Assembly (NCBI GenBank): GCA_963713955.1 | Contig: OY970216.1 | Span: 570,252 to 634,251 of the forward strand | DNA length: 64,000 nt | Origin: an uncultured bacterium | Lineage (GTDB): Bacteria > Patescibacteriota > Minisyncoccia > UBA6257 > GWB1-50-10 | Direction of reading: 5' to 3' | Shown: piece after piece, positions 1,279 through 20,997 of the stretch | Numbering within the stretch: the first letter of the stretch is position 1 | Layout: the number at the start of each line of letters is the position of its first letter | Notes under the pieces: generated by a model | What the model was told of the DNA's origin: nothing | The model's database searches: none | The model's input: the letters and a program-made list of their open reading frames with translations, nothing else | Position numbers and translations under genes: made by a program

Positions 1279-3801
1279 ATGAAGGATAAAATCATTATTA
1301 AAGGGGCTCGTGAACATAATTTAAAAAACATAAACCTGGAAATTCCCAGGGACAAAATGATCGTCATGACGGGGCTTTCGGGATCCGGGAAATCGTCCCT
1401 GGCGTTCGACACGATCTTCGCCGAGGGACAGCGTCGGTACGTCGAATCACTCTCCGCCTACGCCCGGCAGTTCCTGGGCCGCCTCGACAAGCCGGACGTC
1501 GACGAAATCGAAGGGCTTTCGCCCGCCATCTCAATCGATCAGAAACATCACTCGGCGAACCCGCGTTCCACCGTCGCGACCATCACGGAAATCTACGACT
1601 ATCTCCGCGTCCTTTTCGCGCGCGTCGGCGTCCCACACTGCCCAATCTGCGGACGCGAAATCAAGAAAATGACACAGGAAGAAATCGTCGACATTGCTGT
1701 CCAGATATATAAGGAAACCAAGGACAAGCGTAATATGGTAATCTTGGCGCCTGTCGTAAGAGGCCGAAAAGGGGAATATTACCAAATGCTTTACGATTTC
1801 CTGAACGCCGGATTTTCTGAAGTCCGGATCGACGGAAAGCTTATGAGTCTCAGGGAACGGATTGACCTCAGCCGCTACAAGCAGCACTCGATCGATCTCG
1901 TTGTTGACCGGATACCGGCCGCCCTTGACTTCAGGAGCAAGGAAAACCGCCTCCGTCTTGCCGAAAGTGTCGAAAACGGCCTCAAATACGGCAACGACGT
2001 CGTGACCATCATCACGGACAAAGAGGTGTCCCTCTCCGCGAAATACACGTGCCCGAACGACGGATTCTCCTTCCCGGAAATAGAGCCGCGGCTTTTCTCG
2101 TTCAACAGTCCTTTCGGAGCCTGCGACACGTGCCACGGCCTCGGCGTCGAAAATCCCTGGTCGGAGAAAATATGCCCGACATGCCTCGGGAAGCGGCTCA
2201 AAGAGGAAAGTTTGAACGTCTTGATAGACGAAAAAAATATCGCCGAAGTGACCGCTTTTTCAATCGACGACTCATTCAACTTCTTCACGAAACTAGAAGT
2301 GAAGCTCAAAAAAAACGAGAGTTCGCTCGCCATCGCCGAAGTGCCGATGAAGGAAATCAAAAATCGCCTGAAGTTCATGATCGACGTAGGGCTTGAGTAT
2401 CTCACGCTCGACCGGAAGGCCGGCACCTTGTCCGGCGGCGAATCCCAACGAATCCGGCTCGCTTCCCAGATCGGATCGCGCCTCGTGGGAGCGCTTTATA
2501 TCCTCGACGAGCCGACCATTGGGCTCCACCAGAAGGACAACGCGAAACTTATTCAAACCCTCAAAAGCCTCCGCGATCTCGGAAACACCATCATCGTCGT
2601 CGAGCACGACGAAGAAACCATACGCGAATCGGACTACCTCGTGGACATCGGCCCCGGTGCCGGCATCCACGGCGGGAAGATCGTCGCCCAGGGACCCATC
2701 CCCGAAGTATTGAAAGATAAAGGACAAACTTCTCTGACCCTGGATTATCTAAGAGGTAAGGAATTCATCGGGGTCCCCAAAACAAGGAGAGCGGTCCCGA
2801 GGACTCACGAATATCTGAGAATTCAGGGCGCCACGGAAAACAATTTGAGAAACCTTGATATCGAGATCCCGCTTCGGAGATTTTCCCTCGTAACCGGCGT
2901 TTCCGGCTCAGGCAAATCGACACTCGTCTACGACGTGCTCTTCAAGAATTTGTCCAACAGGTTCAACGGATCGCATTTCAAGGCGGGGCAGTGCAAGGGA
3001 ATAACGGGAACGGAATACATCAATCGCGTCATCAATATTGACCAATCGCCGATCGGGCGCACGCCGCGTTCCAATCCGGCCACGTATGTCGGCGCTTGGG
3101 GACCGATCCGTGACCTCTTCGCTTCGACGCCCGACGCGCGGGTCCGAGGGTACAAACCGGGGCGGTTCAGCTTCAACGTCCGAGGCGGCCGGTGTGAGAA
3201 TTGCGAAGGCCACGGCGTGATCGCGATCGAGATGCACTTCCTCCCGACCGTTTATGTGACCTGCGATGTCTGCAAGGGCAAGCGTTTCGACCGGGAAACA
3301 CTGGAGGTCGAATACAAAGAGAAAAATATTTTCGACGTCCTCGAGATGACAATCGAAGAGGCAACGAAATTCTTTAATGACATTCCCTGGGTCTACGACA
3401 AATTGAAGATATTGAACGAAGTCGGCCTCGGCTATCTCAAGCTCGGCCAGTCAGCGACTACCTTGTCCGGCGGCGAAGCGCAACGAATCAAGCTCGGCGC
3501 TGAACTCGGCAAACGGGACACGAGGCGCACGCTCTATCTTCTGGATGAGCCGACGACCGGTCTTCACTTCGCCGACGTGAAAAAACTCATTGAAGTACTC
3601 CAGAAACTCGTTGAGCGAGGAAACACTGTCGTCGTCATCGAACATAACTTGGATGTCATAAAAACGGCCGATTGGATCATCGACCTCGGACCCGAAGGAG
3701 GGGAAAAAGGTGGCCGTCTCGTCGCCGCGGGCACCCCCGAGGCAATAACCAGGAAAGTCGGCAGTTTCACTGGAGAGTACCTGAAAAAAGTTTTAAAATA
3801 G
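1279..3801 (+). CDS. uvrA: Excinuclease ABC subunit A, short form of 840 aa
   Basis: Two ABC ATPase modules are present ([15 protein letters not shown] and VSGSGKSTL, with the signatures [12 protein letters not shown] and [11 protein letters not shown]). Zinc-finger cysteines are present (CPICG, CxxC). An SD sequence precedes the ATG. Confidence 0.9.
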
Positions 3802-4672: not shown

Positions 4673-4830
4673 CAAGCAGCTGATACGTTCTTCAGACACG
4701 CGTCGGTCCGCCCCAGCCGGCGGACCACGCTCGACCTCGTCCTCACTCTTCTGCCTTACTGGCAGAAACCATGCCCGCTCGGACTCCGCACGGTCTTCAA
4801 AACATATCAGCTGCTTGCTTTTTTATTTTT
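4673..4830 (+). repeat. Structured intergenic element: a 14-bp perfect inverted repeat (gcaagcagctgata / tatcagctgcttgc) encloses a 118-nt GC-rich segment and ends in a T-run
   Basis: The repeat arms lie at 4673-4686 and 4805-4818. Inner perfect hairpins are ggtccgcc/ggcggacc and ctgcc/ggcag. The element is followed by ttttttattttt. Confidence 0.45.
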
Positions 4831-4847
4831 AAAGGGAAAAATTATAG

Positions 4848-6077
4848 ATGATGAAATTGTACGAAAAGCTGCCCGATACTCCCGGTGTCTACACCATGGA
4901 AGACGCCAGCGGCCGGATTCTTTACATCGGCAAAGCCGTCAATTTGAAGCGGCGAGTTTCGAGCTACTTCCTGAAGCCGCACGATGCGCGGATTGAAAGT
5001 CTCGTGAAAGAGATTAAGAAAATTGATTTTAAGAAAACCGACACCGCGATTGAAGCACTCATCCTGGAGTCAGAACTGATAAAAAAGCACCAGCCGCCGT
5101 TCAATGTCAAGGAAAAGGACGACAAGAGTTTTCTCTATGTCGGGATAACCACGGAGAAATTTCCTCGCGTCCTCTTAATCCGCGGCAAAGACATCGGCCA
5201 AACAAAAGAGTTCAGGGTCGTCCACGGGCCATTCACGTCCGCTTCGAGCATTCGCGAAGCCCTCCGGATCATAAGAAAAATCTTCCCGTACGCGACGCAT
5301 CCAGAACCCAAGAGATCACAAGTGAGGGCTTGCTTCGACTACCAAATCGGCCTTTGCCCGGGAACGTGCATCGGCGCGATCTCGCAGAAGGATTATATGA
5401 AAAACATCAGGAACATCGAACTTTTCTTCAGTGGAAAAAAAGAAAGGATCATCAAAAATTTGGAGCGCGAGATGAAAACGGCGAGTAAGATGTTGAATTT
5501 CGAGCGAGCGGGGGAATTGAAGCGCCAACTTTTCGCTCTCCAACACATTCAGGACGTTGCAGTCATCAAGGGAGACGAGATATCCGATACTCGAAATTCG
5601 AAATTAGAAGTTAGAAATTCCACGAAGCGGATAGAGGGTTATGATATATCGAATATCTCGGGTACTTCGGCCGTAGGCTCGATGGTCGTTTTCACCGACG
5701 GGAAACCAGACAAAAAAGAATACCGCAAATTCAAGATACGAACCGTTCTCCAACCGAACGATTTCGGGATGCTCCGGGAAGTCCTAGAAAGACGCCTGAA
5801 AAGAATTCCGCCGGCTGGCGGATGGCCGTTGCCCGACCTGTTTCTGATAGACGGCGGCAAAGGGCAAGTCAGCGCCGTGAAGAGCGTCATCCGAAAGGCG
5901 GGATTAAAAACGCCCGTCGTCGGGATCGCGAAGGGCCCGGAACGGAAGCGGAACGACATCGTGGGAAAGATTCCCGACTTCACAGATCTCCAAACACTCG
6001 TAAAAGTACGAGACGAAGCTCATCGCTTCGCCATCACCTACCACAAGAAAGTGAGGGAATATAATTTCCTGAAATAG
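4848..6077 (+). CDS. uvrC: Excinuclease ABC subunit C, short form (GIY-YIG + UVR + endonuclease domains; no C-terminal HhH domain)
   Basis: A GIY-YIG motif (GVYTMEDASGRILYIGKAVNLKRRV) is present. A UVR domain follows (FERAGELKRQLFALQHI), then the EndoV-like region (IEGYDISN). The protein is 409 aa, whereas canonical UvrC is about 600 aa. Confidence 0.8.
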   Translation: MMKLYEKLPDTPGVYTMEDASGRILYIGKAVNLKRRVSSYFLKPHDARIESLVKEIKKIDFKKTDTAIEALILESELIKKHQPPFNVKEKDDKSFLYVGITTEKFPRVLLIRGKDIGQTKEFRVVHGPFTSASSIREALRIIRKIFPYATHPEPKRSQVRACFDYQIGLCPGTCIGAISQKDYMKNIRNIELFFSGKKERIIKNLEREMKTASKMLNFERAGELKRQLFALQHIQDVAVIKGDEISDTRNSKLEVRNSTKRIEGYDISNISGTSAVGSMVVFTDGKPDKKEYRKFKIRTVLQPNDFGMLREVLERRLKRIPPAGGWPLPDLFLIDGGKGQVSAVKSVIRKAGLKTPVVGIAKGPERKRNDIVGKIPDFTDLQTLVKVRDEAHRFAITYHKKVREYNFLK

Positions 6078-9810: not shown

Positions 9811-10566
9811 ATGTCCATTTATTACACAGCCCAGAGAAAAACGAGAATATTCGATCCGGCGGCGAAAGAACCGTTCCTGATATCGCGGAGCGGGATAGAA
9901 CTCTTCATGGAATGCCCCCGCTGCTTTTACCTGGATAAGAGAAAAGGCGTCGCGCGGCCGAACGGGTTTCCGTTCAGCCTGAACAACGCTGTCGACGCAC
10001 TGTTGAAAAAAGAATTCGACGTCCACCGGACCGCCGGATCTAAGCATCCTCTTGTGAAGGCATACGGCATCGATGCCATCCCGTACGCCGACGAAAGGCT
10101 AGAAGAATGGCGCGACTCGCGAACGCGAGGCGTAAAATTCGTCCATGAGCCGACCAATCTCGCCATCCACGGCGGGATCGACGACGTCTGGGTGAACCCG
10201 AAAGGGGAGCTTCACGTCGTCGACTACAAAGCGACATCAAAGAGCGGGGAAGTGAGTTTAGATGCAGATTGGCAGATATCGTACAAGCGCCAGGTGGAAG
10301 TGTATCAGTGGCTTTTCCGACGGAACGGATTTAAGGTGTCCGATACTGCGTACTTCGTGTATTGCAACGGCAATGCCGACAAGGAGGCTTTCGACGGCAA
10401 GTTGGAATTCGACGTGAAAATTATCCCGTATGACGGGAATGATGAATGGATTGAGAAGGCTTTGAGCGACATAAAAAAATGCTTGATGGCCGATAATATT
10501 CCCGACCCAGACCCGGATTGCGATTACTGCAAATACCGATTCGCCATGCATAAAGTGGAAAAATAA
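9811..10566 (+). CDS. PD-(D/E)XK nuclease-superfamily protein, Cas4/RecB-like, with putative Fe-S cysteines
   Basis: The RecB-nuclease motifs are present: GGIDDV (D), VVDYK (D/ExK) and QVEVYQW (QxxxY). An N-terminal CPRC and C-terminal C...CDYC give a Cas4-like cysteine arrangement. No CRISPR context is present. Confidence 0.5.
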   Translation: MSIYYTAQRKTRIFDPAAKEPFLISRSGIELFMECPRCFYLDKRKGVARPNGFPFSLNNAVDALLKKEFDVHRTAGSKHPLVKAYGIDAIPYADERLEEWRDSRTRGVKFVHEPTNLAIHGGIDDVWVNPKGELHVVDYKATSKSGEVSLDADWQISYKRQVEVYQWLFRRNGFKVSDTAYFVYCNGNADKEAFDGKLEFDVKIIPYDGNDEWIEKALSDIKKCLMADNIPDPDPDCDYCKYRFAMHKVEK

Positions 10567-10880
10567 AATGAGACCTCGACCCAATCTACCTCGACGAATT
10601 GACAAGAGAGAAAGTTCTATTACAATATACTATTCAAGCACCTTGATTTTTTAATTTTTAGGAGACTGCCCAGACACGACGACATAACTCTCTTTTCCCC
10701 ACACCCGAGAAGAGAACCTCCGTCTGCGGCAGTCTCAAATTTCTGGAGAAGGCTCCAGAACAGAATGGTTGAATCTAGATCAAAATTGACCGACCATCCT
10801 GGAGCCCCACTCCCTTTCTTATAAAACAACTCTCACCCTTGTGGGAGTTTCGTTTTTTATTGTAGAATGACGAGGTATTT

Positions 10881-10952
10881 TGCCGGGTCGTCTAGTGGTA
10901 GGACGTTTGGCTCTGAACCAGAAAACTGGGGTTCGAATCCCTGCCCGGCAGC
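10881..10952 (+). tRNA. tRNA-Gln, anticodon CUG
   Basis: A cloverleaf can be read by eye. The acceptor stem is tgccggg/cccggca, the D-arm is gtcgtctagtggtaggac, the anticodon stem is tttgg/ccaga with loop cuCUGaa, and the T-arm contains GGTTCGAATCC. CCA is not encoded. Confidence 0.8.
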
Positions 10953-11004
10953 TAATACCACGACACTCGCTACTCTAATGTAGCGGGTGTTTTGGTATCT
11001 AAAT

Positions 11005-11026
11005 TGTCGGCAGGGATTCGAACGGG
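11005..11026 (-). repeat. Inverted partial copy of the tRNA-Gln 3' end (15/15 nt, ggcagggattcgaac)
   Basis: The segment is the reverse complement of tRNA positions about 10931-10945. Confidence 0.55.
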
Positions 11027-11116
11027 AGTGGGGTAGGGAAAACATCTGGTCTCCCTTGGCGGAAATATTAAAACCGAGGGGTTTAAAAACAGCGATTTGC
11101 TGTATAGCGAATCGCC

Positions 11117-11142
11117 GTTGTTCGACTCCCTGCCCGGCAGCT
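11117..11142 (+). repeat. Direct partial copy of the tRNA-Gln 3' end (gttcgaCtccctgcccggcagct, 22/23 identical); looks like an attachment-site remnant
   Basis: It compares with tRNA positions 10930-10953. No 5' half is present that could make a second tRNA. Confidence 0.6.
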
Positions 11143-11192
11143 GAGGTGTTTTTAGTGTGCAGACCGTTTTCTGCATGTGCTAAACTTAATCT

Positions 11193-11927
11193 ATGAATCC
11201 CAAAAAAGATGCATACGGTCAGGAGATACTGACATATCTCAATAAAAAGCCTTCGTATGAGATCGTTGAAAGGGAAGACGGTTTTGTCGGACTATCCGGC
11301 GGGGTAAAGAACTATTTCGCCGATTTCAAGCATTGGCCCGAGTGGCAGAAGCAGGGTATCAAGTTCGCCAAGGGGAGAGTATTGGATATCGGAACCGGTG
11401 CCGGGAGAGTCGCTCTGTACCTCCAGAAAAAAGGCCACAAAGTGACGGCAATAGACAATTCACCACTTGCGATCCAAGTATGTAAGAGAAGGGGAGTGAG
11501 AGATGCGAGGGTTCTTCCTATCGAGAAGGTTGGCGCATTCAAACCAAGTACATTTGACACCGTCGTCATGTATGGAAACAATTTCGGTTTGTTCTGCAAT
11601 TTCAAAAAAGCAAAAACTCTTCTCAGGGAACTCCATAAGATCACGGCACCCGCTGCCCTGATTATTGCGGAAAGCAACGATCCGTACGAAACCAACAATC
11701 CGGTTCACCTCGCGTACCACAGACTTAATCGAAAGCGTGGCCGGATGACGGGACAAACAAAGCTTAGGATACGGTTCAGAAACTACATCGGGGATTGGTT
11801 TGACTATCTCCTCGTATCCAGACAGGAAATGAAAGATATCCTCAGGGGCACTGGCTGGAAAGTGAAGAAATTCATCGGTTCCGGCGCACATATGTACATA
11901 GCAGTCATTGGAAAGGATAAGAATTAA
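11193..11927 (+). CDS. Class I SAM-dependent methyltransferase
   Basis: Motif I is VLDIGTGAGRVALYL, and a post-I acidic residue follows (TAIDNSP). Confidence 0.7.
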   Translation: MNPKKDAYGQEILTYLNKKPSYEIVEREDGFVGLSGGVKNYFADFKHWPEWQKQGIKFAKGRVLDIGTGAGRVALYLQKKGHKVTAIDNSPLAIQVCKRRGVRDARVLPIEKVGAFKPSTFDTVVMYGNNFGLFCNFKKAKTLLRELHKITAPAALIIAESNDPYETNNPVHLAYHRLNRKRGRMTGQTKLRIRFRNYIGDWFDYLLVSRQEMKDILRGTGWKVKKFIGSGAHMYIAVIGKDKN

Positions 11928-11928
11928 G

Positions 11929-12267
11929 ATGATCACCTACGACGATTTTGAAAAAGTAGATATGCGCCTTGGAAAGATAGTGGAAGTCGAGGATCTTAAG
12001 AAAGCCAGGAATCCGTCTTTCAAGTTGAAAATAGATTTCGGTCCGGAGATTGGCGTCAAGACCTCAAGCGTCCAGGCTGTCGGCGCGCACATCAAAGAAG
12101 AACTCCTGGGGATGTTGGTCATCTGTGTCATCAATTTCTCGCCGAAAAGGGTTGCTGACTTCGATTCGGAAGTTCTGACGCTTGGATTCAGGAACAGTGA
12201 GGGAACCGGCTGGGTACTTATAACCCCATCAAAAAAATCAGTCAAAATTGGCGACAGGTTAAAATAG
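11929..12267 (+). CDS. tRNA-binding protein, CsaA/Trbp111/EMAP-II-like OB fold
   Basis: The protein begins MITYDDFEKVDMRLGKIVEVE and contains KIDFGPEIGVKTSSVQ, which resembles the MetRS C-terminal tRNA-binding domain. The ORF track starts 21 nt earlier, at 11908. Confidence 0.6.
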   Translation: MITYDDFEKVDMRLGKIVEVEDLKKARNPSFKLKIDFGPEIGVKTSSVQAVGAHIKEELLGMLVICVINFSPKRVADFDSEVLTLGFRNSEGTGWVLITPSKKSVKIGDRLK

Positions 12268-12289
12268 CCGCGCGGCTAGAAAATTTACC

Positions 12290-12787
12290 ATGGTAGACCC
12301 AAACAGTGCCTATGAAAAGTTAATAAATCTGCTGGATAGCAACCACGTTGAATACAAGCTGTTCTCCCACAAGGAAGCATTGACCTGGGAAGAACTGGCT
12401 GAGGTGCAAAAGGAAACCGGCTTCTTCGGAACGGAGATGAAATGCATGGTCCTGAAAGCTGGTGATGATTTTATCGTCTATATAACCCTCCAAGGGAAGC
12501 GATTAAATTTCGATGCGATCAAGGAAAAACTCGACGTAACCAAGGTTCGGTTATCCACCCCGGAAGAATTGAACGAACATTTTGGTGCGAAGCCAGGCTG
12601 CGCCTATCCCTTTGGTTTCGACAATCAATACGACATCTACATTGATCCCGAAATCTATAAACAGGAATGGATGCTCTTTAGTCCTGTTTTCCCGAATAAG
12701 ACTGCGCAGGTCAGGGGATCGGATTTGAAGAAAGTGTTTGATTCTCTTGAAAATAAAGTGGAAGAGGTTACGGGATTTAATCAATGA
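12290..12787 (+). CDS. YbaK/ProX-family aminoacyl-tRNA deacylase (trans-editing domain)
   Basis: A 165-aa protein containing the motif GAKPGCAYPFG, within the YbaK-family size range. Confidence 0.6.
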   Translation: MVDPNSAYEKLINLLDSNHVEYKLFSHKEALTWEELAEVQKETGFFGTEMKCMVLKAGDDFIVYITLQGKRLNFDAIKEKLDVTKVRLSTPEELNEHFGAKPGCAYPFGFDNQYDIYIDPEIYKQEWMLFSPVFPNKTAQVRGSDLKKVFDSLENKVEEVTGFNQ

Positions 12788-13539
12788 AAATAATTTCCTG
12801 GAACGTTAACGGGTTGAGGTCAGTGTATCAGAAGGGATTTTCCGCTTGGCTTGGAAAAAGTAACGCTGACATTGTTTGCCTTCAGGAAATAAAAGCGCAG
12901 GAAGGGCAAATCCCTACGGATTTACTTTCATTTAAGAACTATCATCTCTACATCAATCAAGCCCAGAAGAAAGGCTATAGCGGAGTTGCGGTATTTACGA
13001 GGGGGAAGCCCTTGAAGGTAAGTTATAAGTTAGGTCTGCGTCGTTTTGATAGTGAGGGGAGAATGATACAGCTCGAGTACAAAAACTTTATCTTAGTTGC
13101 GCTTTATATGCCCCACGGGGGAAGGTTTAAGGAAAATCTCCCCTACAAATTGGAGGCCTATAAAAATCTGTTTAATTGCCTCCGTAAACTGAAAAACAAG
13201 AACATCATTCTGGCGGGAGATTTTAACGTGGCTCATGAGGAAACTGACCTTGCGAGGCCGGATTCGAATAGAAACAACATCATGTTTACGCCAGGGGAAA
13301 GGAAGAAAATAGACATGTTGATGGAGAGCGGCTTCACGGATACCTTCAGAAAGTTCCACGGGGGAGGTGGCCACTACACTTGGTGGCCATATATGGCGAA
13401 TGCTCGTGAGAGAAACCTTGGATGGAGGATTGATTACATATTTACCTCCAGTCCGATCTCGAGAAGAGTTAAAGACGCCTTTATCTTAGATAAAGTACAT
13501 GGCTCAGACCATTGCCCTGTAGGGATAGATTTGTTGTAG
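12784..13539 (+). CDS. xth: Exodeoxyribonuclease III / AP endonuclease
   Basis: The N-terminus reads MKIISWNVNGLRS...DIVCLQEIK. The C-terminus contains SDHCPV. The start overlaps the upstream stop by 4 nt. Confidence 0.85.
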   Translation: MKIISWNVNGLRSVYQKGFSAWLGKSNADIVCLQEIKAQEGQIPTDLLSFKNYHLYINQAQKKGYSGVAVFTRGKPLKVSYKLGLRRFDSEGRMIQLEYKNFILVALYMPHGGRFKENLPYKLEAYKNLFNCLRKLKNKNIILAGDFNVAHEETDLARPDSNRNNIMFTPGERKKIDMLMESGFTDTFRKFHGGGGHYTWWPYMANARERNLGWRIDYIFTSSPISRRVKDAFILDKVHGSDHCPVGIDLL

Positions 13540-13559
13540 TTGTGTTAAACTGAAAACAT

Positions 13560-14108
13560 ATGAAATGCCCCAGGTGCAAAAGGGAAATGATAAAAAGGGT
13601 GAAAGATGTGAGTTATAACTTGAGAACTGGCAAACAGTACAGCAGGACTGTGTATTTGTGCGAGAAGGATGATGTGTGGTGGGCCAGGGTGGAAATTCCG
13701 AATGGAAAGATGACCAAGAAAGCCACGGGGGAGAAAGGAATCATAAAACACATAGAATTTTGGGTTTTTGATTTGAAGCGATCAATGAGATTCTATAAGG
13801 GTATTTTCAAACTTATTCACTGGGATCATGTCGAGAAAAACGCTTTCAGTAACGGCCAAACAAAGATCTACTTTATTGAGCAGAAGGTAGAACCCCAGAG
13901 AACGGTCGGCCCCAGGCATATATGTTTCTTGGCTGATTCGTGTGAAACCGTCGATGAGATTGCCCGGTTTTTGATCAAGAACAAAAGCGATATTATTCGG
14001 GGCCCCCTTGAGTACCAATACAGAAATCGGATCTCCTACACTATAGATTTCAGGGACCCTGACGGATATGTTATAGAGGTAGCGACCAAGTCGGTCATCC
14101 GGCATTAA
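13560..14108 (+). CDS. VOC/glyoxalase-bleomycin-resistance-fold protein with an N-terminal zinc-ribbon
   Basis: The N-terminus carries a zinc-ribbon (CPRC...C). VOC beta-alpha-beta-beta-beta modules follow (HIEFWVFDL, GPRHICFLADS, IDFRDPDGYVIEV). Confidence 0.5.
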   Translation: MKCPRCKREMIKRVKDVSYNLRTGKQYSRTVYLCEKDDVWWARVEIPNGKMTKKATGEKGIIKHIEFWVFDLKRSMRFYKGIFKLIHWDHVEKNAFSNGQTKIYFIEQKVEPQRTVGPRHICFLADSCETVDEIARFLIKNKSDIIRGPLEYQYRNRISYTIDFRDPDGYVIEVATKSVIRH

Positions 14109-14116
14109 ACCTTGAG

Positions 14117-14914
14117 ATGAAACGGGAGGACTACATAAAAGCAATTCAAACCTTTGAACCGGTCTTTTTCGATGCTGGTAAGTTAGCGGTGGAATTGCAA
14201 AAAGGTATTGTGCCAAAAACGAAGCTCGGTACGGGGGTGCACGACATAGATGTGGTGACGGATGCGGACACCGCGGTCCAGGAAATGGTTCTATCAGCTG
14301 CGAGCAAGACCATATTGTCAGAGTGCCGCCTCGTGGCCGAAGAAGATACGGAATCAGTCGGCAAATTCAATCCAAACGGAGAATTTTTGTTCGCCATTGA
14401 CCCAATCGACGGAACACATCGGTACGCTGAAGGTGGCCAGATTTTTAGTCTTATAGTTAGCCTTCAAGCCCCGGGTTTACCCATCTACACCTTTGCGCAT
14501 TATCCCGCCATCAGATGGACTCATTGGTTCATTGGCAACACGCATCGCGAAGAAGGACAGAAACCCGGAATATCAATTAAAAGAACAGATAAGGCGATCA
14601 CGTATTCGTATGGTGATCCAAAGAGTAGAGTATCTGATTTAGAAATCCAGAAGATGAAAACCAGGGGTTATGACTTTGTAGACAAGGAATCACTAACTTC
14701 CGATTGCGGTGCGACGACTACCCTCCTCGCCGGAGTGGTTGAGGGATACTATTGCGAAGATCCTCTTGCCGTCGATGGATTAGTTGGCATGCATTATGGC
14801 CTGGCACATAATTGTGAAATTCACAGTACCTTGCAGAAAGAATGGCCGAAACCTGGGTTTGGCGGCATTAGATACTCTGGCTATTATTTTGTTATTCGAG
14901 AGGGGAAGAATTAA
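14117..14914 (+). CDS. Inositol monophosphatase / CysQ-family phosphatase
   Basis: The metal-binding motif AIDPIDGT and an upstream acidic cluster (EED) are present. Confidence 0.65.
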   Translation: MKREDYIKAIQTFEPVFFDAGKLAVELQKGIVPKTKLGTGVHDIDVVTDADTAVQEMVLSAASKTILSECRLVAEEDTESVGKFNPNGEFLFAIDPIDGTHRYAEGGQIFSLIVSLQAPGLPIYTFAHYPAIRWTHWFIGNTHREEGQKPGISIKRTDKAITYSYGDPKSRVSDLEIQKMKTRGYDFVDKESLTSDCGATTTLLAGVVEGYYCEDPLAVDGLVGMHYGLAHNCEIHSTLQKEWPKPGFGGIRYSGYYFVIREGKN

Positions 14915-15009
14915 GACAAATAGGGTGGGTGTTAATGCTAGTTTATGCCCTTAAGCAATTCCCGACACCTTCCAGCGCGCCGAGCTGAAGTATTTTTTAT
15001 CGCGCCGCG

Positions 15010-15029
15010 CAGACCGAAAGGTCTGTTTT
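15010..15029 (+). terminator. Rho-independent terminator (cagacc-gaaa-ggtctg-tttt)
   Basis: A 6-bp perfect stem with a GAAA tetraloop and a T4 run lies downstream of the 14117-14914 gene. Confidence 0.45.
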
Positions 15030-15068
15030 GGCAACCTAATTCCAAGCTATTGGGATATTACGATGCTG

Positions 15069-15097
15069 TTGACATCAGTGCTGTTTCGGTATATAAA
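15069..15097 (+). promoter_or_regulatory. Sigma70 promoter for rnc: TTGACA, 17-nt spacer, TATAAA
   Basis: The sequence ttgacatcagtgctgtttcggtatataaat matches the consensus closely. It lies about 50 nt upstream of the rnc ATG. Confidence 0.5.
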
Positions 15098-15145
15098 TCA
15101 CAACAGAAACTTCACTTAACTAACCTCTCAAAGGAAGGAGACAAT

Positions 15146-15847
15146 ATGAGAGACTTTATTGACTGTGAAAAGAAACTGGGCGTGGAGTTTAAGAACAAAG
15201 AACTCCTCAAGAATGCTTTTACTCACCGTTCGTATGTCAACGAGGTTAAGGGATTAAATACGAGGCACAATGAGCGCCTGGAGTTTCTCGGGGATGCAGT
15301 CCTTGAACTTATAGTAAGGGAATACCTTTACACGGCATTTCCCGAAAAACCCGAGGGTGAGCTTGCCGCCATCCGTAATACGCTTGTGGGTATGGAAATA
15401 CTCTCCGGTGTTACCCGTCGTTTGGAGGTAAGTGAGTTCCTGCTCACTTCAAATGGTGCCATAAAAGAGGGGGAACGCGCCTTGAGGACCATACTCGGCA
15501 GGCTCTATGAGGCCATCGTCGGTGCAATATACCTTGATCAGGGATATGAGACAGCGCAAAACCTCGTCTATGAGACTCTCCTGCCCGAACTCAAGACAGC
15601 CATTAACTTCCGCGACGCCAAGTCCTTTTTCCAAGAAGTAGCCCAGGCGTTGATGAAAATCACGCCGCACTATGAGCTCCTTAAGGAAGAAGGGCTCGAC
15701 AATAAGAAATGCTTTGTCGTCGCAGCCTGCTTAGGTGAAGAGCAAGTCGCGACCGGTGTAGGCACCTCCAAGAAGGAAGCAGAAACCAGAGCAGCGGAAG
15801 CCGCCCTGAAAGTAAAGGGTTGGCTTAACAAAATACCAGTCGTCTAA
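15146..15847 (+). CDS. rnc: Ribonuclease III
   Basis: The RNase III signature ERLEFLGDAVLEL is present, with a C-terminal dsRBD. An SD (aaggaaggag) precedes the ATG at 15146. The ORF track start at 14945 is upstream read-through. Confidence 0.85.
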   Translation: MRDFIDCEKKLGVEFKNKELLKNAFTHRSYVNEVKGLNTRHNERLEFLGDAVLELIVREYLYTAFPEKPEGELAAIRNTLVGMEILSGVTRRLEVSEFLLTSNGAIKEGERALRTILGRLYEAIVGAIYLDQGYETAQNLVYETLLPELKTAINFRDAKSFFQEVAQALMKITPHYELLKEEGLDNKKCFVVAACLGEEQVATGVGTSKKEAETRAAEAALKVKGWLNKIPVV

Positions 15848-15866
15848 CGACGGTAACTTTATTCAA

Positions 15867-15910
15867 GCCCCCGTTCGTGTCATCGATTTGACCGGCGGGG
15901 CGCTTTATTT
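15867..15910 (+). terminator. Hairpin (gcccccg...cgggggc) followed by ctttatttt; candidate rnc terminator
   Basis: The feature begins 20 nt after the rnc stop. Confidence 0.4.
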
Positions 15911-15911
15911 T

Positions 15912-16800
15912 CATGAAGGGAATACTTTGATAAGGGTATCCCTAGTCAATTGGCGCAAAGGTTAACGACTTTTTGAGGTAGTTCCTGGGGTTTTGAAACA
16001 ATTCCGGTGAGGAAAATCTGACGGAAAATTCCCTCACGTAGTCAGGCATCTTCTCCGCGGTCACGTGATGGTACATTCTCCTCACGAATGTCCTGAAGTT
16101 CCCGAACATCCCCTCGATCTCGGAGGTCTTCCCGAACTCCCATTTAGCATGGATGTCCCGTTCGTGTCTCACTGGCCACCATCTCTCGATGCCCCGGTAT
16201 ATGGCTGCCCCATCGGTATGGAGCCTCGCCCTCGGCTTCACGTACTCCATGAGGAACCGAACCGCTTCTGCTCGGTCAACCGACTTCTCGGGCAAAACCA
16301 CGTACGCGACCTTTCTCGAGCGCTCCTCTTTCCCCATGATGAGTGACCAGCCCTTGCCGTATGCCTCATCGAGCTGCACGATCCGTGAGAGAATATCATG
16401 GTTTTGAGGCAGGTGTTCCCGGAAGCGGTCGTACCAGCGACGGATGGCCATCTCGGAAAGCCCCGAGAGGTTCATGGCTTGAACAACGGGTATCTTTTCG
16501 CACCACGCCCAGAGGACGAGCCACCACGTCTCAAGCGGGAGCTTCAGATCGCTTAACCAGGTGTATGAGAGGAGGGTGAACCTTCTCCGACATCGGGGGC
16601 ACCAGTACCGATCCTTCTCCTTCCAGACATCCCGGTACCGACAGCGGGGACAGTACACATTCTTGCCAAAGAGCGTTCTCCGGAGAAACTTCCTGATCTG
16701 GGCTTCCGACGGTATTTGATTCAATTGGTACATATCCTTCATGGTATGCGATATGCGCCAACATGATTAGAGTACCCCTTTGATAAAACCTTGACATATT
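15912..16800 (-). mobile_element. IS1595-family insertion sequence; boundaries not resolved
   Basis: The extent is set around the transposase CDS. Flanks show short palindromes (gggaatac/gtatccc) but no clear terminal inverted repeats that I can see. Confidence 0.3.
15942..16742 (-). CDS. IS1595-family (ISXO2-like) transposase
   Basis: An N-terminal transposase zinc-ribbon is present (CPRCRYRDV...CPRCRRRF). DDE-type region motifs follow (QLDEAY, LHTDGAAIY, EIEGMFGNFRTFVRRMYHHV). Confidence 0.75.
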   Translation of the reverse strand: MKDMYQLNQIPSEAQIRKFLRRTLFGKNVYCPRCRYRDVWKEKDRYWCPRCRRRFTLLSYTWLSDLKLPLETWWLVLWAWCEKIPVVQAMNLSGLSEMAIRRWYDRFREHLPQNHDILSRIVQLDEAYGKGWSLIMGKEERSRKVAYVVLPEKSVDRAEAVRFLMEYVKPRARLHTDGAAIYRGIERWWPVRHERDIHAKWEFGKTSEIEGMFGNFRTFVRRMYHHVTAEKMPDYVREFSVRFSSPELFQNPRNYLKKSLTFAPID

Positions 16801-16884
16801 CACCGAAAGGTGGTATTTTATTTACACGCATATTTACTTTTTAATATTAGCTGAAAACTTAACCGAAAGGAGGGATAAGCAGAC

Positions 16885-17784
16885 ATGAGATTGGAATGGA
16901 GTGAAATGCTTGTGATTGCGGCTATTAGAGAGCTTCATAGGACTGGAGTAAGGATAAATTCCAATTACATCCAGGAACACTACAGGAGTTTGTACAATGC
17001 TGCAGTGTGGCGTTTCGGTAGTTGGGGCGACGCAGTTGAGGCGAGCGGATACAGTTATGCAAAGATTCTCGCACTCAAGCTACTTCGCCATCCGAAATGG
17101 AGTAAACAAATTGTAATCTCGAGAATAAGGGAACTCCATGAATCCGGTGAAAAGCTGAACTCGAATTATATCCAGACACACCACCAATCTCTCTACGGAG
17201 CTGCTATTAGATACTTCGGGAGTTGGGGGAAGGCCGTTAAAGCCGCTGGGTACGATTATGGTTCGGTCCGGGTTCGGAAACCTTTTCGTTCTTGGACGAA
17301 GGACAAAATTGTGAGTGCCATTAAGACCAGGTACCGGAAAGGATTGCCAATCAACACAATGGCAATCTACTCACAGGATCGCGGTCTTTATAGCGCGGTC
17401 AGACGTCATTTTGGGAAAGACGGTATGAAGAAAGCTCAAAAAAAAGCCGGCTTCAATCCGCGAGATTTAGATCCCAAGAGAATATGGACTTCTAAGAAGG
17501 TGTTGCGGGAAATAAGGAGATTGAAAAAACTTCATGTCCCGCTCTACCACTTTTATCTTCTGAATCACGGTTACCAAAGCTTGACCTACGCCGGAGTAAG
17601 GCTCTTCGGCAGCTGGAGAAAGACAATCAAAGCCGCCAGACTTGATTACGATCGTATTAAAGCGGTCAGGAATCATTTCTGGAATAAGGGGCGAGTGATT
17701 GTAGAGATCAGACGTCTTGCCAGAAAAGGTGAGCGCCTGAGTTCGAAACACATCCACCTTACTGTGATGGATAGGTTTCTTTAG
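16885..17784 (+). CDS. Tandem-repeat protein (about 5 degenerate repeats of roughly 62 aa); C-terminus replaced by IS sequence
   Basis: The repeat consensus is W[ST]Kxx[IV][IV]xxIRELHxxGxx[IL]NSNYIQxHxxSLYxAA[IV]RxFGSWxxAVxAAGY, and resembles homing-endonuclease-associated helical repeats. The last 7 codons lie inside IS copy 1. Confidence 0.5.
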   Translation: MRLEWSEMLVIAAIRELHRTGVRINSNYIQEHYRSLYNAAVWRFGSWGDAVEASGYSYAKILALKLLRHPKWSKQIVISRIRELHESGEKLNSNYIQTHHQSLYGAAIRYFGSWGKAVKAAGYDYGSVRVRKPFRSWTKDKIVSAIKTRYRKGLPINTMAIYSQDRGLYSAVRRHFGKDGMKKAQKKAGFNPRDLDPKRIWTSKKVLREIRRLKKLHVPLYHFYLLNHGYQSLTYAGVRLFGSWRKTIKAARLDYDRIKAVRNHFWNKGRVIVEIRRLARKGERLSSKHIHLTVMDRFL

Positions 17785-17824
17785 ACAGTCACTCGACAAG
17801 TTTTCTCGTCGTTTTTTCATTCTC

Positions 17825-18607
17825 TCACACTGCTATCTTCTCTGCAAACACCGAAGGCGGCATCCTGAGAGCGGAGTGGATTCTTGTATGGTTGTACTCC
17901 CAAAGCGTTCGGTAGATCTCCGCCACAAGTTCCCCTAAGGATCTGAACCGATTAGGATCGCCAAGATCCATTTTGAATTTTCCGTAGAAAGATTCTTGGT
18001 ATCCGTTCTCCCACGGCGATCCGGGGCGTGAGCGGGAGATGGTGATGCCGTAGCGCTCAAGCATAGCGATGAACGCCTTCGCTTCGTATTCCCTCCCGTT
18101 GTCAGAATGGAAGATCACGGGTCGCGGGCAATGGAAGAGCGCGTTCGCCAGAGTTTGGATGGTGAGCGTCGATCCCTTCCGGGTCGCCACATGAACGCCC
18201 ATCAGTTGCCTCGTAAACAGGTTAAGGATCGTTGATACGTACAGCTTCTTCCCGTGAAAGACAAGCTCCGTGAAATCCGTCGCCCAGACATGGTTCGCAT
18301 ATGATGGCATAATGCCGAGGAGGAGGTTCGGGAAGTGCCGTTCCGCCTTGGATTTCCTGTATTTTCTCCCATGCCTGCGGTAGGGCTTGATGCCGTAAAT
18401 CCGCATGACCCGTTGCGCTCTCGGTCTGCCGATGCCGAGCGCAATCGCCAGTCGGCGTGAGCCGTATGAGGGATGCTCGTGAAGCACCTCCTCCGTCCGG
18501 ACCTTTAATGCCCAATCCTTCTTGTCCTGCGTTGCGACGTAATAGAGCGATGAGCGCGAGACACCCATGGCGCGAGCCAGGGCGGATACGTTCCTTTCCC
18601 TGCTCAA
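17825..18607 (-). CDS. IS3-family transposase OrfB (rve integrase core, DDE)
   Basis: The rve-core segments WATDFTE, FHSDNGREY and SPWENGYQESF are present. Confidence 0.85.
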   Translation of the reverse strand: MSRERNVSALARAMGVSRSSLYYVATQDKKDWALKVRTEEVLHEHPSYGSRRLAIALGIGRPRAQRVMRIYGIKPYRRHGRKYRKSKAERHFPNLLLGIMPSYANHVWATDFTELVFHGKKLYVSTILNLFTRQLMGVHVATRKGSTLTIQTLANALFHCPRPVIFHSDNGREYEAKAFIAMLERYGITISRSRPGSPWENGYQESFYGKFKMDLGDPNRFRSLGELVAEIYRTLWEYNHTRIHSALRMPPSVFAEKIAV

Positions 18608-18867
18608 TTCTTTTTTTGGGTCTGGGACAGCTTGATCGTGAGTTCACCGATCACTTCGAAGAGTTCCTGATTCTGTTTCTTTAGGCGATTGATTTCTCCC
18701 CAGGAGGGAGCGCTCGTGGCACCGGCGCCGAGCCATCCATACACGGTTGTCTCGTGGACGCCTGCATCTTTTGCCGCTTCTGCGACGGAGACGCCTTCTT
18801 CCTTCACGCGGCGGACAATCTCCGCTTTTACCTCTTTCGCTACCCGATATCCTTTTTTGTTAGCCAT
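18604..18867 (-). CDS. IS3-family transposase OrfA (HTH)
   Basis: An 87-aa protein with a helix-turn-helix and leucine zipper. It ends at the A_AAA_AAG slippery site. Confidence 0.8.
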   Translation of the reverse strand: MANKKGYRVAKEVKAEIVRRVKEEGVSVAEAAKDAGVHETTVYGWLGAGATSAPSWGEINRLKKQNQELFEVIGELTIKLSQTQKKN

Positions 18868-18921
18868 GACACAATGGTAATTTGTTCCGACCTTTGTGTC
18901 TAAATTTTCCTATCCGGAACA

Positions 18922-19134
18922 GTCGCCGAAGACCCAAACTATCTTCAGCTCTATCTGAGAAAGGTCTCAAAAGATCAAATTGGAATCGGTCTCACCTACC
19001 AGATACCGGAGGGCAAGGATGTCAAAACAGCTCAGGGGGAGTATTTTGACAAAGTCTCCGACTATCTTAAGCGGAACTTCGGGAACGATCTTGTGGGCTG
19101 GGATATGGCGGCCACCGTTCAACTCGTCAAATAA
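18922..19134 (+). pseudogene. 3' remnant (70 codons) of a gene truncated by IS copy 1
   Basis: The frame is open from the IS boundary to the TAA at 19132-19134 (...GWDMAATVQLVK*). It has no start codon. Confidence 0.4.
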
Positions 19135-19169
19135 ACAATAACAGTCGAAAAAGGACTGGAACTAGAAAA

Positions 19170-19205
19170 CCTGCCGATATGGCGGGTTTTCTACTTTTAT
19201 ACAAC
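19170..19205 (+). terminator. Hairpin (cctgcc-gatat-ggcggg) followed by a T-rich tract
   Basis: The sequence is aaaacctgccgatatggcgggttttctacttttat. Confidence 0.4.
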
Positions 19206-19316
19206 CCCCACCTTTCAGAACTATAAATGTAATAAGTGCGGCGAGCTTTCTAACATCTAACTAGAAGCCTTATAATTTCACTGGTATTACTCATTAAAAA
19301 GAGTTATCTTTTTGTT

Positions 19317-19823
19317 ATGGCGGAAAATAATGCTGCCTTTATTGACAGTAATAATCTTTATCAGGCGATCAAGAAGCTAGGCTGGAAACTAGATTATTTG
19401 AAATTTAAGACATATCTCTTAGAGAAATACAAAGTTAGAAATGCTTATCTATGTATTGGATACCTACCTCAGAATCAGGCAATGTATACCAACCTACAAC
19501 AGAGGGGTTATATTCTCGTTTTTAAACCAGTTTTAACACTCAAAGATGGCACCACGAAGGGTAACTGTGACGCCGATCTAGTTCTAAGGGCTATGATTGA
19601 ATATCCTAATTATGATAAAGCGGTGATCGTGGCCGGAGACGGAGATTATTATTCCTTAATCGATTACTTGAAATCTAAAGATAAACTGGAGCAAGTTCTG
19701 ATTCCAAATGAGTTCAGGTATTCAGCACTATTAAAAAAGGTCAATGACGAACACTTAAAATACACTTCTTTCATAAGTAGGTTGAGAAATAAGTTGGAAT
19801 ATTTTAGCACTGAAGCCTCATAA
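19317..19823 (+). CDS. NYN-domain (LabA-like PIN-fold) protein
   Basis: The acidic residues are arranged as in PF01936: IDSNNLY, GNCDADLVL and VIVAGDGDYYSLIDYL. The gene lies in an AT-rich islet. Confidence 0.65.
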   Translation: MAENNAAFIDSNNLYQAIKKLGWKLDYLKFKTYLLEKYKVRNAYLCIGYLPQNQAMYTNLQQRGYILVFKPVLTLKDGTTKGNCDADLVLRAMIEYPNYDKAVIVAGDGDYYSLIDYLKSKDKLEQVLIPNEFRYSALLKKVNDEHLKYTSFISRLRNKLEYFSTEAS

Positions 19824-20112
19824 AAATGAAAAGGGCCCCAGAAGGATTGAACCCCAAGGGAGCCTTTTCGTGGTGATACAATATAAATATACACCCCCTC
19901 CTATTGGGAAGTCAAAAGCCGAACGAACGGCTGCCTGTGGATAACCGATAACCCAGCGATTTCTCCTTTATTAACAGCATTCCAACATTGTCCCACTCGG
20001 AGAGCTGGATGCTATAGCGCAGCATATCAACGTATGTAAGCATGGCATAGGAAAAAGAGTAAATCCCGCATAGACCGAAATCTAGCGGGATTTATCGGCA
20101 ATGTAGATATAC

Positions 20113-20997
20113 TCATTCTGTTTCTTTGAAGCCTATCATAACCAGCCCCTTGTGCTCGGTCATAAATCTATTGTCCGGCTGAATCTTTAAAAGTTCTGTT
20201 CTCAGCTCATTTTCAAAATCTTTCAGGCGATCCACGAAAAGACTCTTTGCCGCATAAGAGGTGGTAAATTGTTCGGCGATCACCTCATCAACCGTCTTCA
20301 CGACCGAGGGAAAGAAATAATTGAATTTTTCTATTCGCTTGAAGCCAGCTTCCCGAAGATAAACGTCGAAAGATTTCTCGGGAGCTTTGAATTTTCCCTC
20401 TGTCGTTCTCCGCTCGGGCCCAAGATATTTTTTAATAACCTCAACGATCTTCCGTTCCCAAGCGGTGGGTGCATTGGTCCAAATGCTCTTGCCGCTCAAG
20501 ATCACTACGGCTCCATCCTCCGTCAAAAGCTTGTGGCTCAAAGAAAGCACCTTCTCTACATCCAGCCAGTGGAGAGCTTGAGCAAAAACCACACACTTGA
20601 ACCGACCCAGTTTATCATCCAAATCTTCTGCCCTACTCACGATCCACGTAACATTGCTGACTCCTAAATCTCCAGCTCGCTTTTTAGCCTCCTTGATCAT
20701 ATCCCCACTCGCATCTACGGCAACAATCTCATTAAAATATTTGACGAAAGGAAAAGTGGATCTACCGTCACCACACCCTATATCCAGCAAGCGCTCATTC
20801 CCGGCCAGATGGAGTTTCTCCGCAATGGTTCGGATGGTCTCTTCGGGGTACTCTCTACGATACTTAGTATAGGTTTTTGCCACTCCGGGAAATAAGTCCA
20901 TGGTTAAACTATAATCCAAATGCTCTTTACCGTCGACGAGTTCAAGAAGACATATGAAGAGGATAGGATGGAGATATCCGAGTTGGAATTGCCGCAC
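20113..20997 (-). CDS. Class I SAM-dependent methyltransferase
   Basis: Motif I is LLDIGCGDGRST, followed by VAVDASGDMI. A downstream hairpin (aaatcccgc/gcgggattt) on the minus strand looks like a terminator. Confidence 0.7.
   Translation of the reverse strand: MRQFQLGYLHPILFICLLELVDGKEHLDYSLTMDLFPGVAKTYTKYRREYPEETIRTIAEKLHLAGNERLLDIGCGDGRSTFPFVKYFNEIVAVDASGDMIKEAKKRAGDLGVSNVTWIVSRAEDLDDKLGRFKCVVFAQALHWLDVEKVLSLSHKLLTEDGAVVILSGKSIWTNAPTAWERKIVEVIKKYLGPERRTTEGKFKAPEKSFDVYLREAGFKRIEKFNYFFPSVVKTVDEVIAEQFTTSYAAKSLFVDRLKDFENELRTELLKIQPDNRFMTEHKGLVMIGFKETE

Follow-up and report, generated by a model that had tools for sequence, protein, structure and literature searches.

The attP site of CTX-phi contains two inverted dif-like sites ~90 nt apart that fold into a XerCD substrate, and the integron attC site is a folded single-strand hairpin recombination site with an R'' (RYYYAAC) and an R' (GTTRRRY) box at the hairpin base and with extrahelical bases. 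Miniature inverted-repeat transposable elements (MITEs) and structured intergenic repeats include Correia/NEMIS, ERIC, BOX and REP/BIME, and in the guide logic of IS200/605 and of the IS110 bridge RNA a non-coding guide lies at the insertion edge. The closest known case to the locus described here is that of the tRNA-linked islands of streamlined genomes. The tycheposons of Prochlorococcus are such islands, with partial tRNAs left by successive integrations, and they use tyrosine recombinases, large serine recombinases being present in a minority of the integrase-carrying elements (bioRxiv 10.1101/2020.12.28.424599). Patescibacteria (the candidate phyla radiation, CPR) have tiny genomes in which DNA gain and loss are little understood. 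Here we analyse 64,000 nt of a Patescibacteria genome (Genome Taxonomy Database (GTDB) lineage UBA6257, GWB1-50-10), hereafter the window, in which the gene for tRNA-Gln(CUG) is followed by an inverted and a direct copy of its own 3' end. An earlier note on this DNA read these copies as the footprint of a tyrosine integrase at the head of a decayed gene island. It is well supported that they are instead parts of a conserved, folded, non-coding insert of ~190 nt (the module), and not the ends of the neighbouring gene island.

The tRNA-Gln repeats and the folded module

ARAGORN finds a single tRNA in the 64 kb, tRNA-Gln(CUG) at 10881–10952, and the Rfam tRNA model RF00005 scores 59.3 bits at 10881–10951 against a gathering score of 29, which bears out the gene call of the earlier note. 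The two copies of its 3' end are also real, at 11120–11142 (direct) and 11009–11023 (inverted). The direct repeat (10931–10953 and 11120–11142) is identical at 22 of 23 positions, the inverted repeat (10931–10945 and 11009–11023) is complementary at 15 of 15, and the inverted and direct copies are complementary to each other at 14 of 15. Shuffled sequences do not reproduce the repeats: local alignment scores of the repeats exceed those of 1000/1000 shuffles, and a 22-mer search allowing up to 3 mismatches finds only the two direct copies in 64 kb, with 0 expected (100 shuffles). The repeat begins at G53 and runs to 2 nt beyond the discriminator, the gene remaining intact, as with an att-type repeat; the last 22 nt of the tRNA are the first copy of the target. 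The two direct repeats lie 189 nt apart and enclose 167 nt, and both are to the left of the 13-kb gene block that follows, rather than on its two flanks. A third tRNA-derived copy, which the earlier note had proposed to look for downstream as attR, was not found in the window, the right end of the block included (22-mer and repeat searches). The sequence GGGGTTCAAGACC at ~24067 was considered as such a copy; it falls within a pilin-like open reading frame (ORF) and was taken as chance.

Relatives were collected by searching GTDB species genomes with the PD-(D/E)XK protein (gene at 9811–10566); the matches were all metagenome-assembled genomes (MAGs) of Patescibacteria type. Loci L001–L005 are ~90% identical to the window in this protein. 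Further relative loci compared are L166, L171, L172, L175 and L177; loci elsewhere span ~10 kb each, and L166 spans 18 kb. The features of the module and its edges in the window are as follows.

10881–10952, + strand: tRNA-Gln(CUG), functional copy (ARAGORN; Rfam RF00005)
10931–10953, + strand: T, the repeated tRNA 3' end (T-loop, T-stem 3' strand, acceptor 3' strand, discriminator and 2 nt more)
10954–11004, + strand: trailer, a palindromic spacer (from the sequence)
11005–11023, + strand: IC, inverted copy of the tRNA 3' end, the 5' strand of helix P1 (repeat search, fold)
11024–11055, + strand: P2 hairpin, stem GGGAG/CUCCC, loop motif GGGGnnGGGAAAAC (fold, covariation)
11056–11067, + strand: conserved unpaired linker with UUGGCGGAAAUA, GCGGA being invariant in all copies
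11068–11087, + strand: P3 hairpin, 3 of 8 pairs with a compensatory change
11088–11119, + strand: P4 hairpin GCGAUUUGCU/AGCGAAUCGC, a fast-evolving stem with a G-C/A-U compensatory change relative to L002
11120–11142, + strand: DC, direct copy of the tRNA 3' end, the 3' strand of P1 (repeat searches, shuffles, covariation with IC)
11158–11192, + strand: small hairpin and putative extended -10-like box TGcTAAACT (read from the sequence)

Folded alone, 11000–11150 forms an IC/DC closing stem around the three hairpins (z = -4.9 for the + strand, -5.3 for the - strand). The fold of the + strand is the lower in energy, and several G.U pairs speak for this strand. IC is predicted to be able to pair either leftward with T, as a palindrome, or rightward with DC, closing a four-way junction. 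T, trailer and IC together form an imperfect palindrome of >40 bp, with 37 of ~50 positions mirrored both in the window and in L002, and its single-strand fold has z-scores of -9.0 in the window, -8.2 in L002 and -6.4 in L001, where the trailer is of unrelated sequence and again palindromic. The apex of the trailer (~10957–10992) followed by UUUU resembles an intrinsic terminator and is a candidate terminator for the tRNA. Downstream, the putative -10-like box stands directly 5' of the leaderless-looking ATG of the first island gene, and such a box followed by a same-strand gene is present after all copies of the element. The earlier note took the inverted copy as a sign of a second integration event; it is not evidence of such an event, because the inverted and direct copies are the 5' and 3' strands, respectively, of one conserved helix.

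The repeat-bearing segment, which would be a decaying scar under the earlier reading, is the most conserved DNA of its neighbourhood. Positions 10948–11080 are 94% identical to L002, the best 133-nt window in a 3.7-kb syntenic stretch in which the coding maximum is 85.7% and nothing in typA reaches 94%. Genes of the two genomes are 73–80% identical and third codon positions 54%, i.e. synonymous sites are saturated. By part, identity between the window and L002 is 95% in P2-linker-P3, 91.5% in the trailer and IC, 85% in the tRNA and 67% in P4 and DC. The contrast between 94% here and 54% at synonymous sites argues that the segment is not a neutral scar older than the lineage split. Over the 269 nt that align, L172 differs from L002 at 7 positions alone, all of them substitutions within the P4 stem that preserve pairing. 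L004 has lost the terminator, IC and P2 via a deletion between AATACCAAAA and AATACTAAAA; faster decay of its truncated copy was not seen, the remainder being 80% identical to L002, within the neutral-to-gene range.

Covariation supports the same fold. RNAalifold, run on the window, L001 and L002, marks a compensated change in 6 of the 47 pairs that it predicts, including one in P1 (A-U to G-C, IC/DC in L002) and one in P4. When the L003 copy described below is added, 17 of the 47 pairs are changed on both sides and 94% of cells are paired, in an alignment fitted to the model structure that flatters pairing; controls in which the partner is slid by 1–3 columns give 39–57% paired and 0–3 compensated pairs, and 0 of 500 shuffles match. 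Among the families of Rfam 15, riboswitches, ribozymes and Y-RNA-like families included, tRNA alone matches, both at the gathering threshold and at E<=10 on 10560–11260. A small ORF through the element was also considered and rejected: a 33-aa N-terminus is common to the window and L002, with 3 of 5 substitutions synonymous (not significant, ~0.1 per frame), it lacks a ribosome-binding site, and the C-termini, which follow an indel, are unrelated.

A second member of the family lies within another gene. A covariance model built solely from the three tRNA-linked copies matches L003:987–1116(-) with 34 bits (E ~1e-6), 15 nt from the typA start codon, on the opposite strand and with no adjacent tRNA. 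The four-way junction is the same; P2 has changed from GGGAG/CUCCC to GGAAAA/UUUUCC, P4 is wholly different yet paired, and the loop and linker motifs GGGGnnGGGAAAAC, GCGGA, GGGAGC and CGACGT are kept. The P1 3' strand runs on into a 56-nt direct duplicate of the typA start codon and first 19 codons, with the pseudo-start MKRNNIRNIAIIAQVD and the true start MKKREDIRNIAIIAHVD, and typA TTTTCC(GTG)GTCAACGTGAGC recurs in inverted form as the P1 5' strand; for each of the two copies 0 of 1000 shuffles are as good. The duplication regenerates the start of typA, and beyond the pseudo-start lies ordinary typA upstream region as in the window (two sequences compared by eye). The tRNA-Gln and typA loci thus share an anatomy that serves as the family signature: a working gene end, a short spacer, an inverted copy, a three-hairpin core and a displaced copy. 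That the repeats form a conserved structured element with a paralogue elsewhere is well supported.

Mapped on a neighbour-joining tree of the PD-(D/E)XK gene, the tRNA-linked copy is present in the window, L001, L002 and L172, partial in L004 and L177, and absent from the tRNA-Gln site in L175, L005, L003 and L166. L001 and L002 are 98% identical in that gene, yet their trailers are unrelated. The 64-kb window has a single copy, and elsewhere there is one per 10-kb locus; this small, structured family occurs in a single genus-level group of Patescibacteria. The sequence that follows the tRNA can be aligned with L001, L002 and partly L004, all of them genomes without the 13-kb block; since relatives lacking the block carry the element, the element must be either older than the block or independent of it. 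Degenerate-motif matches, two in IMG/VR, were rejected as chance by the covariance model. Plasmids have no match to the module, and among phages the tRNA part alone matches phage tRNA-Gln genes; a phage or plasmid origin was rejected on these grounds.

The 13-kb block and the tRNA-Gln-to-fmt interval

To the left of the tRNA, the ORF at 4848–6077, typA and the PD-(D/E)XK gene have the same order in L001–L004, with counterparts 77–91% identical; the typA and PD-(D/E)XK proteins are 88–91% identical to those of relatives, and the counterpart of the ORF at 4848–6077 in relatives has UvrC-type domains. An orthologous tRNA-Gln lies downstream of the PD-(D/E)XK gene in L001–L005, L166, L175 and L177. 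The genes 3' of it in L001–L005 match the window from 24190 onward (fmt, def, ctpB-like, rplI, rpmA), L171, L175 and L177 likewise pass from tRNA-Gln to these genes, and the window from 11193 to ~24000 has no protein counterpart in the L001–L004 loci. Segment 11193–24189 (13 kb) is thus an insertion relative to every relative. Its parts, and the gene that follows, are listed below.

11193–15847, + strand: accessory block part 1, with genes for an S-adenosylmethionine (SAM) methyltransferase, a CsaA-like tRNA_bind protein, a YbaK-like tRNA_edit protein, an Xth-like nuclease, a VOC protein, an IMPase-like protein and RNase III (Pfam)
15942–16742, - strand: IS1595-type transposase gene (Pfam DDE_Tnp_IS1595 and Zn_ribbon_IS1595)
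17763–18921, - strand: IS3-family copy A, with orfA of 87 aa, orfB (rve) of 260 aa and ends TGT..ACA
18922–22859: segment between the insertion sequences (IS), with NYN, methyltransferase, DUF3750, HAD and GNAT-like ORFs; GC 43.1%
22860–24018, + strand: IS3-family copy B, identical to A and inverted, the right edge of the block
24190–25056, - strand: fmt (methionyl-tRNA formyltransferase), the first gene again common to all relatives (Pfam, synteny)

The composition of the block is discontinuous with its surroundings. Its GC content is 46.8% against 50.2 +/- 0.6%, and its tetranucleotide L1 distance is 0.19–0.32 against a background of 0.14 +/- 0.02 with a maximum of 0.19; for part 1 the values are 45.7% GC and a distance of 0.257 versus 0.14 +/- 0.02. 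The stretch 11193–14914, which the earlier note had singled out for lower GC, is indeed at 45.2%, equal-size windows outside the insert averaging 50.1 +/- 1.4% with a minimum of 46.5%, and Pfam recovers the gene content as described (methyltransferase, tRNA_bind, tRNA_edit, Exo_endo_phos, glyoxalase/VOC and inositol monophosphatase-like). A foreign accessory block absent from relatives thus stands, but it extends over 13 kb rather than 11193–14914 and is not bounded by tRNA repeats. Likewise, the absence of an integrase holds, with no Phage_integrase or resolvase among the 20 ORFs scanned with Pfam at 7.6–25 kb, but three DDE transposase genes had been missed. Absence from relatives at a conserved locus, compositional deviation and mobility genes are all found, and an IS-rich island of 13 kb that is not bounded by tRNA-derived repeats is well supported.

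Several genes of the block have features of their own. Its first gene, the methyltransferase at 11193–12787, has <=76% identity to any homologue outside its own genome, and 65–70% identical homologues are annotated in DPANN archaea (Woesearchaeota, Nanoarchaeota). In L161, another Patescibacteria genome, the same methyltransferase is directly followed by a YbaK-type tRNA_edit gene, and in the window the CsaA-like tRNA-binding gene is inserted between the two; methyltransferase and YbaK-type tRNA_edit are apparently a small module common to two domains. RNase III (14945–15847, + strand) has an N-terminal extension of ~70 aa and, apart from itself, no homologue above 56% identity in 5.8 billion proteins; given its place inside the accessory block, it may be a second, acquired copy. 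The IS3 copies, 1159 bp each, surround a 3.9-kb segment of 43% GC in a layout like that of a composite transposon. No target-site duplications are present at the four IS3 junctions, and an inversion test across the junctions was also negative. The GNAT-like ORF, for which no Pfam match was obtained, runs into copy B at its start, and the end of copy B cuts a 54-aa ORF (24007–24171, - strand) with a type IV pilin-like N-terminus, FTLIELLVVIAIL. Cumulative GC skew peaks at ~15000–19000, where gene orientation appears to go from mostly + to mixed or -, and the hot spot may lie near the replication terminus.

As the earlier note had suggested, the locus was compared across relatives: the block is absent from all of them, and the content of the tRNA-Gln-to-fmt interval differs among the window, L001/L002, L004, L003, L005, L175 and L166. 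The interval holds the element and the 13 kb in the window, the element and a Gmad2-like gene in L001/L002, an unrelated 185-aa ORF in L005, and a Gmad2-like gene alone, 3 nt after the tRNA, in L175. In L003 it holds extra 5' (51-nt) and 3' (17-nt) pieces of tRNA-Gln, a TreT-like glycosyltransferase gene and a Gmad2-like gene. In L166 a cassette abuts tRNA-Gln that encodes a 513-aa large serine recombinase (Resolvase, Recombinase, Zn_ribbon_recom), its reading frame running into the tRNA, as well as genes for an XRE HTH protein and a DUF5677 protein; the 18 kb of this locus did not include fmt. The cassette lies between 96–116-nt inverted repeats, the near one starting in the tRNA T-loop and the far one ending in a degenerate inverted tRNA 3' end. 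That the tRNA-Gln-to-fmt interval is a recombination or integration hot spot is well supported.

Homologous large serine recombinase genes, 47% identical, lie between long inverted repeats in L166 (9392–12130) and L156 (9784–12146). In L166 these repeats measure 96–116 nt; those of L156 are in pieces and cover ~500 nt. One repeat extends over the final ~40 codons of the recombinase gene, so that a spare inverted C-terminal coding end lies on the other side, and this architecture is unusual. The module was considered as a remnant of the 3' end of an L166-type recombinase gene and this was rejected, the similarity being no better than chance. The GGTTCGAAC motifs, which recur at a distance of 101 nt in those genes, are not DNA sites, since they code for the conserved peptides WFEP and KxGSN, each in another frame. 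In L003 the full tRNA-Gln (4877–4948) is nested between an exact 51-nt 5' copy (4750–4800) and an exact 17-nt 3' copy (4992–5008), with inverted repeats 4805–4830/4962–4987 and 4862–4883/4940–4961 around the inner gene; from its sequence, 4750–5008 looks like a tRNA-bearing hairpin inserted into the T-loop of an older copy. In L082, a more distant relative whose PD-(D/E)XK protein is 74% identical, AGTCCCGCAGCC occurs at ~2636–2650 (-), ~165 nt downstream of tRNA-Gln. It resembles the acceptor 3' strand of the L001–L005-type tRNA-Gln and may be another displaced tRNA end.

Just upstream of the tRNA, 10599–10862 (+) carries a promoter close to consensus, TTGACA-16-TACAAT (11/12), then ~230 nt free of ORFs and a terminator at 10828–10860. 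It has a strong fold (z = -6.3) and matches nothing in Rfam at E<=10, and it is homologous in L001, L002, L004, L005 and L175, which keep the hairpins GAGaCUGCC..GGCAGUCUC and CUGC..GCAG; it is a candidate unclassified small RNA. The PD-(D/E)XK (Cas4-like) protein itself (9811–10566, +) retains 60–70% identity across very many Patescibacteria lineages (hundreds of loci), which is unusual for a protein with no assigned role, and in close relatives its gene is always in the uvr/typA neighbourhood.

Readings of the module

The module is quite possibly a miniature integrative element that is non-autonomous and whose att site is a hairpin mimicking the target, and we tentatively prefer this reading. 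The free form would carry a copy of the target gene end, presented as a hairpin duplex in which IC pairs with that copy, and the junction of the free circle would join ..GAATCGCCGTT to GTTCGAATCCCTGCC..TAATACC. Entry into the gene end would proceed by Campbell-type site-specific recombination catalysed in trans; insertion would regenerate the gene, T being the new end and DC presumably the displaced original one. The same interval also received, just to the right of DC, the low-GC, IS-rich 13-kb block, which the tRNA repeats do not bound. Mobility, the free form, the recombinase and the active strand or molecule (DNA or RNA) are all steps that we infer. A direct copy starting at G53 is what T-loop recombination would leave, and this point is supported. 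The tyrosine-integrase footprint of the earlier note survives in part: its logic of gene-end replacement fits T and DC at both loci, but the repeats do not bound the block, and the sole recombinase seen at the site in a relative, that of L166, is a large serine recombinase.

Several points weigh against an integrative element. Only five distinct sequences at two loci are known; an exact 20-mer of the core has no match in IMG/VR or JGI metagenomes, and nhmmer and two covariance models found no copy in ~170 other loci (169 other Patescibacteria loci). No free or circular form was seen. Neither the window nor either of the two loci has a recombinase associated with the element, and no clean pair of empty and filled sites was seen, L175 lacking more than the module. 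A double-stranded circle of 190 nt would be physically awkward. The two targets (the tRNA T-arm and typA GTCAACGTG) share little sequence, so that both could hardly serve one recombinase of fixed specificity. In the window, lineage-specific bases of the tRNA are matched by DC, which could reflect gene conversion between neighbouring repeats, and the low identity of P4 and DC to L002 is more easily reconciled with vertical descent than with recent common import. The pair counts that include L003 also come from the fitted alignment noted above.

It is somewhat unlikely that the module is a vertically inherited functional small RNA, acting in trans or in cis before the next promoter, which is not mobile, whose closing helix derives from or is gene-converted by the neighbouring gene end, and whose patchiness reflects losses. 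Such an RNA would account for the very strong sequence conservation, loops and linker included, for compensatory changes and G.U pairs on one strand, for a 3' part that diverges with phylogeny (67% between the window and L002, 80% between L004 and L002), and for the -10-like box and same-strand gene after every copy. However, it needs loss or truncation in at least 3 of ~7 lineages of a sequence more conserved than typA or the tRNA, and the downstream genes are unrelated (methyltransferase, Gmad2-like protein, 115-aa protein). An RNA gene would also have no reason to make the 56-nt target duplication that flanks the L003 copy at its other site. The trailer is swapped between the 98%-identical genomes L001 and L002, and no Rfam family matches.

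We regard as unlikely a bolder version of the integrative reading, in which the module is a self-contained mobile dumbbell of ~190 nt, made of single-stranded DNA or RNA, with a programmable IC/target-copy stem that would set the insertion site; the core would be retargetable from the tRNA-Gln 3' end to the typA 5' end, and the recombinase would act in trans.

Quite unlikely, too, is a local, non-mobile rearrangement by template switching or hairpin-primed repair at quasi-palindromes, arising independently at the two loci, with arms that homogenise themselves. The T-trailer-IC palindrome does survive sequence replacement in L001, the clustered and perfectly compensated P4 changes in L172 resemble arm-to-arm copying, and the T-loop sequence GGTTCGAATCC is itself nearly palindromic. 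Such events fail to explain the same P2-P3-P4 core and loop motifs at two unrelated loci, and they fail to explain the 94% conservation of unpaired positions.

The literal reading of the earlier note, in which the repeats are decaying attL/attR scars of tyrosine-integrase events and the block from 11193 is the remnant island that they delimit, is improbable. The block is foreign by composition and synteny, other tRNA-Gln fragments are present in L003 and possibly in L082 (by eye), and the direct copy begins at G53, which is reportedly a known crossover sublocation for tRNA-gene-targeting integrases. Against this, the repeats flank 167 nt wholly to the left of the block, whose right edge is an IS3 copy and whose right end has no copy of the repeat; the segment between the repeats is strongly constrained rather than decaying; the element is older than the block or independent of it; and the 20 ORFs scanned include no tyrosine recombinase.

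Finally, the module could hardly be a second tRNA-like gene, be it a tRNA pseudogene at 11005–11142, a tmRNA-like minimal domain or another known non-coding RNA: its 3' arm has a T-loop and an acceptor 3' strand and its 5' arm, GGGAUUCGAAC-GGGA, resembles what we take to be the tmRNA 5' motif, GGAUUCGAC-GGGA, but ARAGORN reports neither a second tRNA nor a tmRNA, Rfam at E<=10 recognises only the tRNA itself, the T-stem 5' strand does not form a stem in any copy (only 3 of 5 positions pair in the window), and no tag reading frame is conserved, window and L002 being out of frame with each other after an indel. In the L003 copy a tRNA-like arm is missing altogether.

As an integrative element, the module may be of the smallest kind, consisting of a target-mimicking hairpin and a three-hairpin core without genes. 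If the stem sets the target, it would be a natural case of retargetable site-specific insertion, and the covariance model would offer a handle for finding the recombinase. If it is a resident RNA, it is a structured, unclassified one whose conservation exceeds that of the adjacent tRNA. Under either reading, it would be a mistake here to annotate the repeats as att scars left by the island next to them.

Comparison with known systems

The module shares with tRNA-targeting islands and tycheposons a recurrent tRNA hot spot in a streamlined genome, a direct repeat of the 3' end that starts in the T-loop, a regenerated gene and cargo that differs per lineage, and one relative, L166, has a large serine recombinase at the site. 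Unlike in those islands, its repeats bracket 167 nt without genes or an integrase, and the 13-kb cargo lies outside them. The bracketed sequence is conserved and folded, with an inverted att copy that pairs with attR, and one member of the family targets the 5' end of a protein gene.

The integrated-state topology is like that of CTX-phi attP and of attC: a target-like site, the element, an inverted site, a spacer of ~96 nt and a target-like site. By analogy, the inverted and direct sites of the module could form a target-mimicking duplex with a structured spacer. However, no dif-like or R''/R' consensus is present at the base of the stem, where P1 has TTGTCGGC / GCCCGGCAG and the GTT/AAC triplets lie at its inner end, and no Xer or IntI is linked; identity as an attC or dif site was rejected for want of the consensus. 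In addition, the stem of the module mimics a gene end that differs per locus, and the remainder of the element is only 20–60 nt.

MITEs resemble the module in size (130–190 nt), terminal inverted complementarity, a stable hairpin, an intergenic position, occurrence at more than one locus and a -10 box at the edge. The arms of the module, however, copy the local target and are not fixed transposase-binding terminal inverted repeats, its duplications of 23–56 nt exceed the 2–10 bp of MITEs, it forms a four-way junction with covarying stems, it seems to be present in very few copies, and a parent IS is not known. A MITE defined by fixed terminal inverted repeats and a short duplication was rejected, since the arms differ by locus and the duplications are 23 nt and 56 nt.

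As in IS110 and IS200/605, a structured non-coding segment complementary to the target stands at the insertion edge, and in L003 it spans the insertion junction. Unlike in those systems, there is no adjacent DEDD/IS110 recombinase, TnpA or TnpB, the complementarity of 12–20 nt is in one block rather than in split guides around a dinucleotide core, and the target duplication is long. An IS110 bridge RNA, which has two internal loops with split guides for target and donor, was rejected, no DEDD-type gene being present among the scanned ORFs and the fold being a four-way junction. The module is unusual in comprising 167–190 nt without genes that are strongly conserved and folded, with an inverted att copy that pairs with either repeat. 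It may represent a new kind of miniature mobile element in Patescibacteria.

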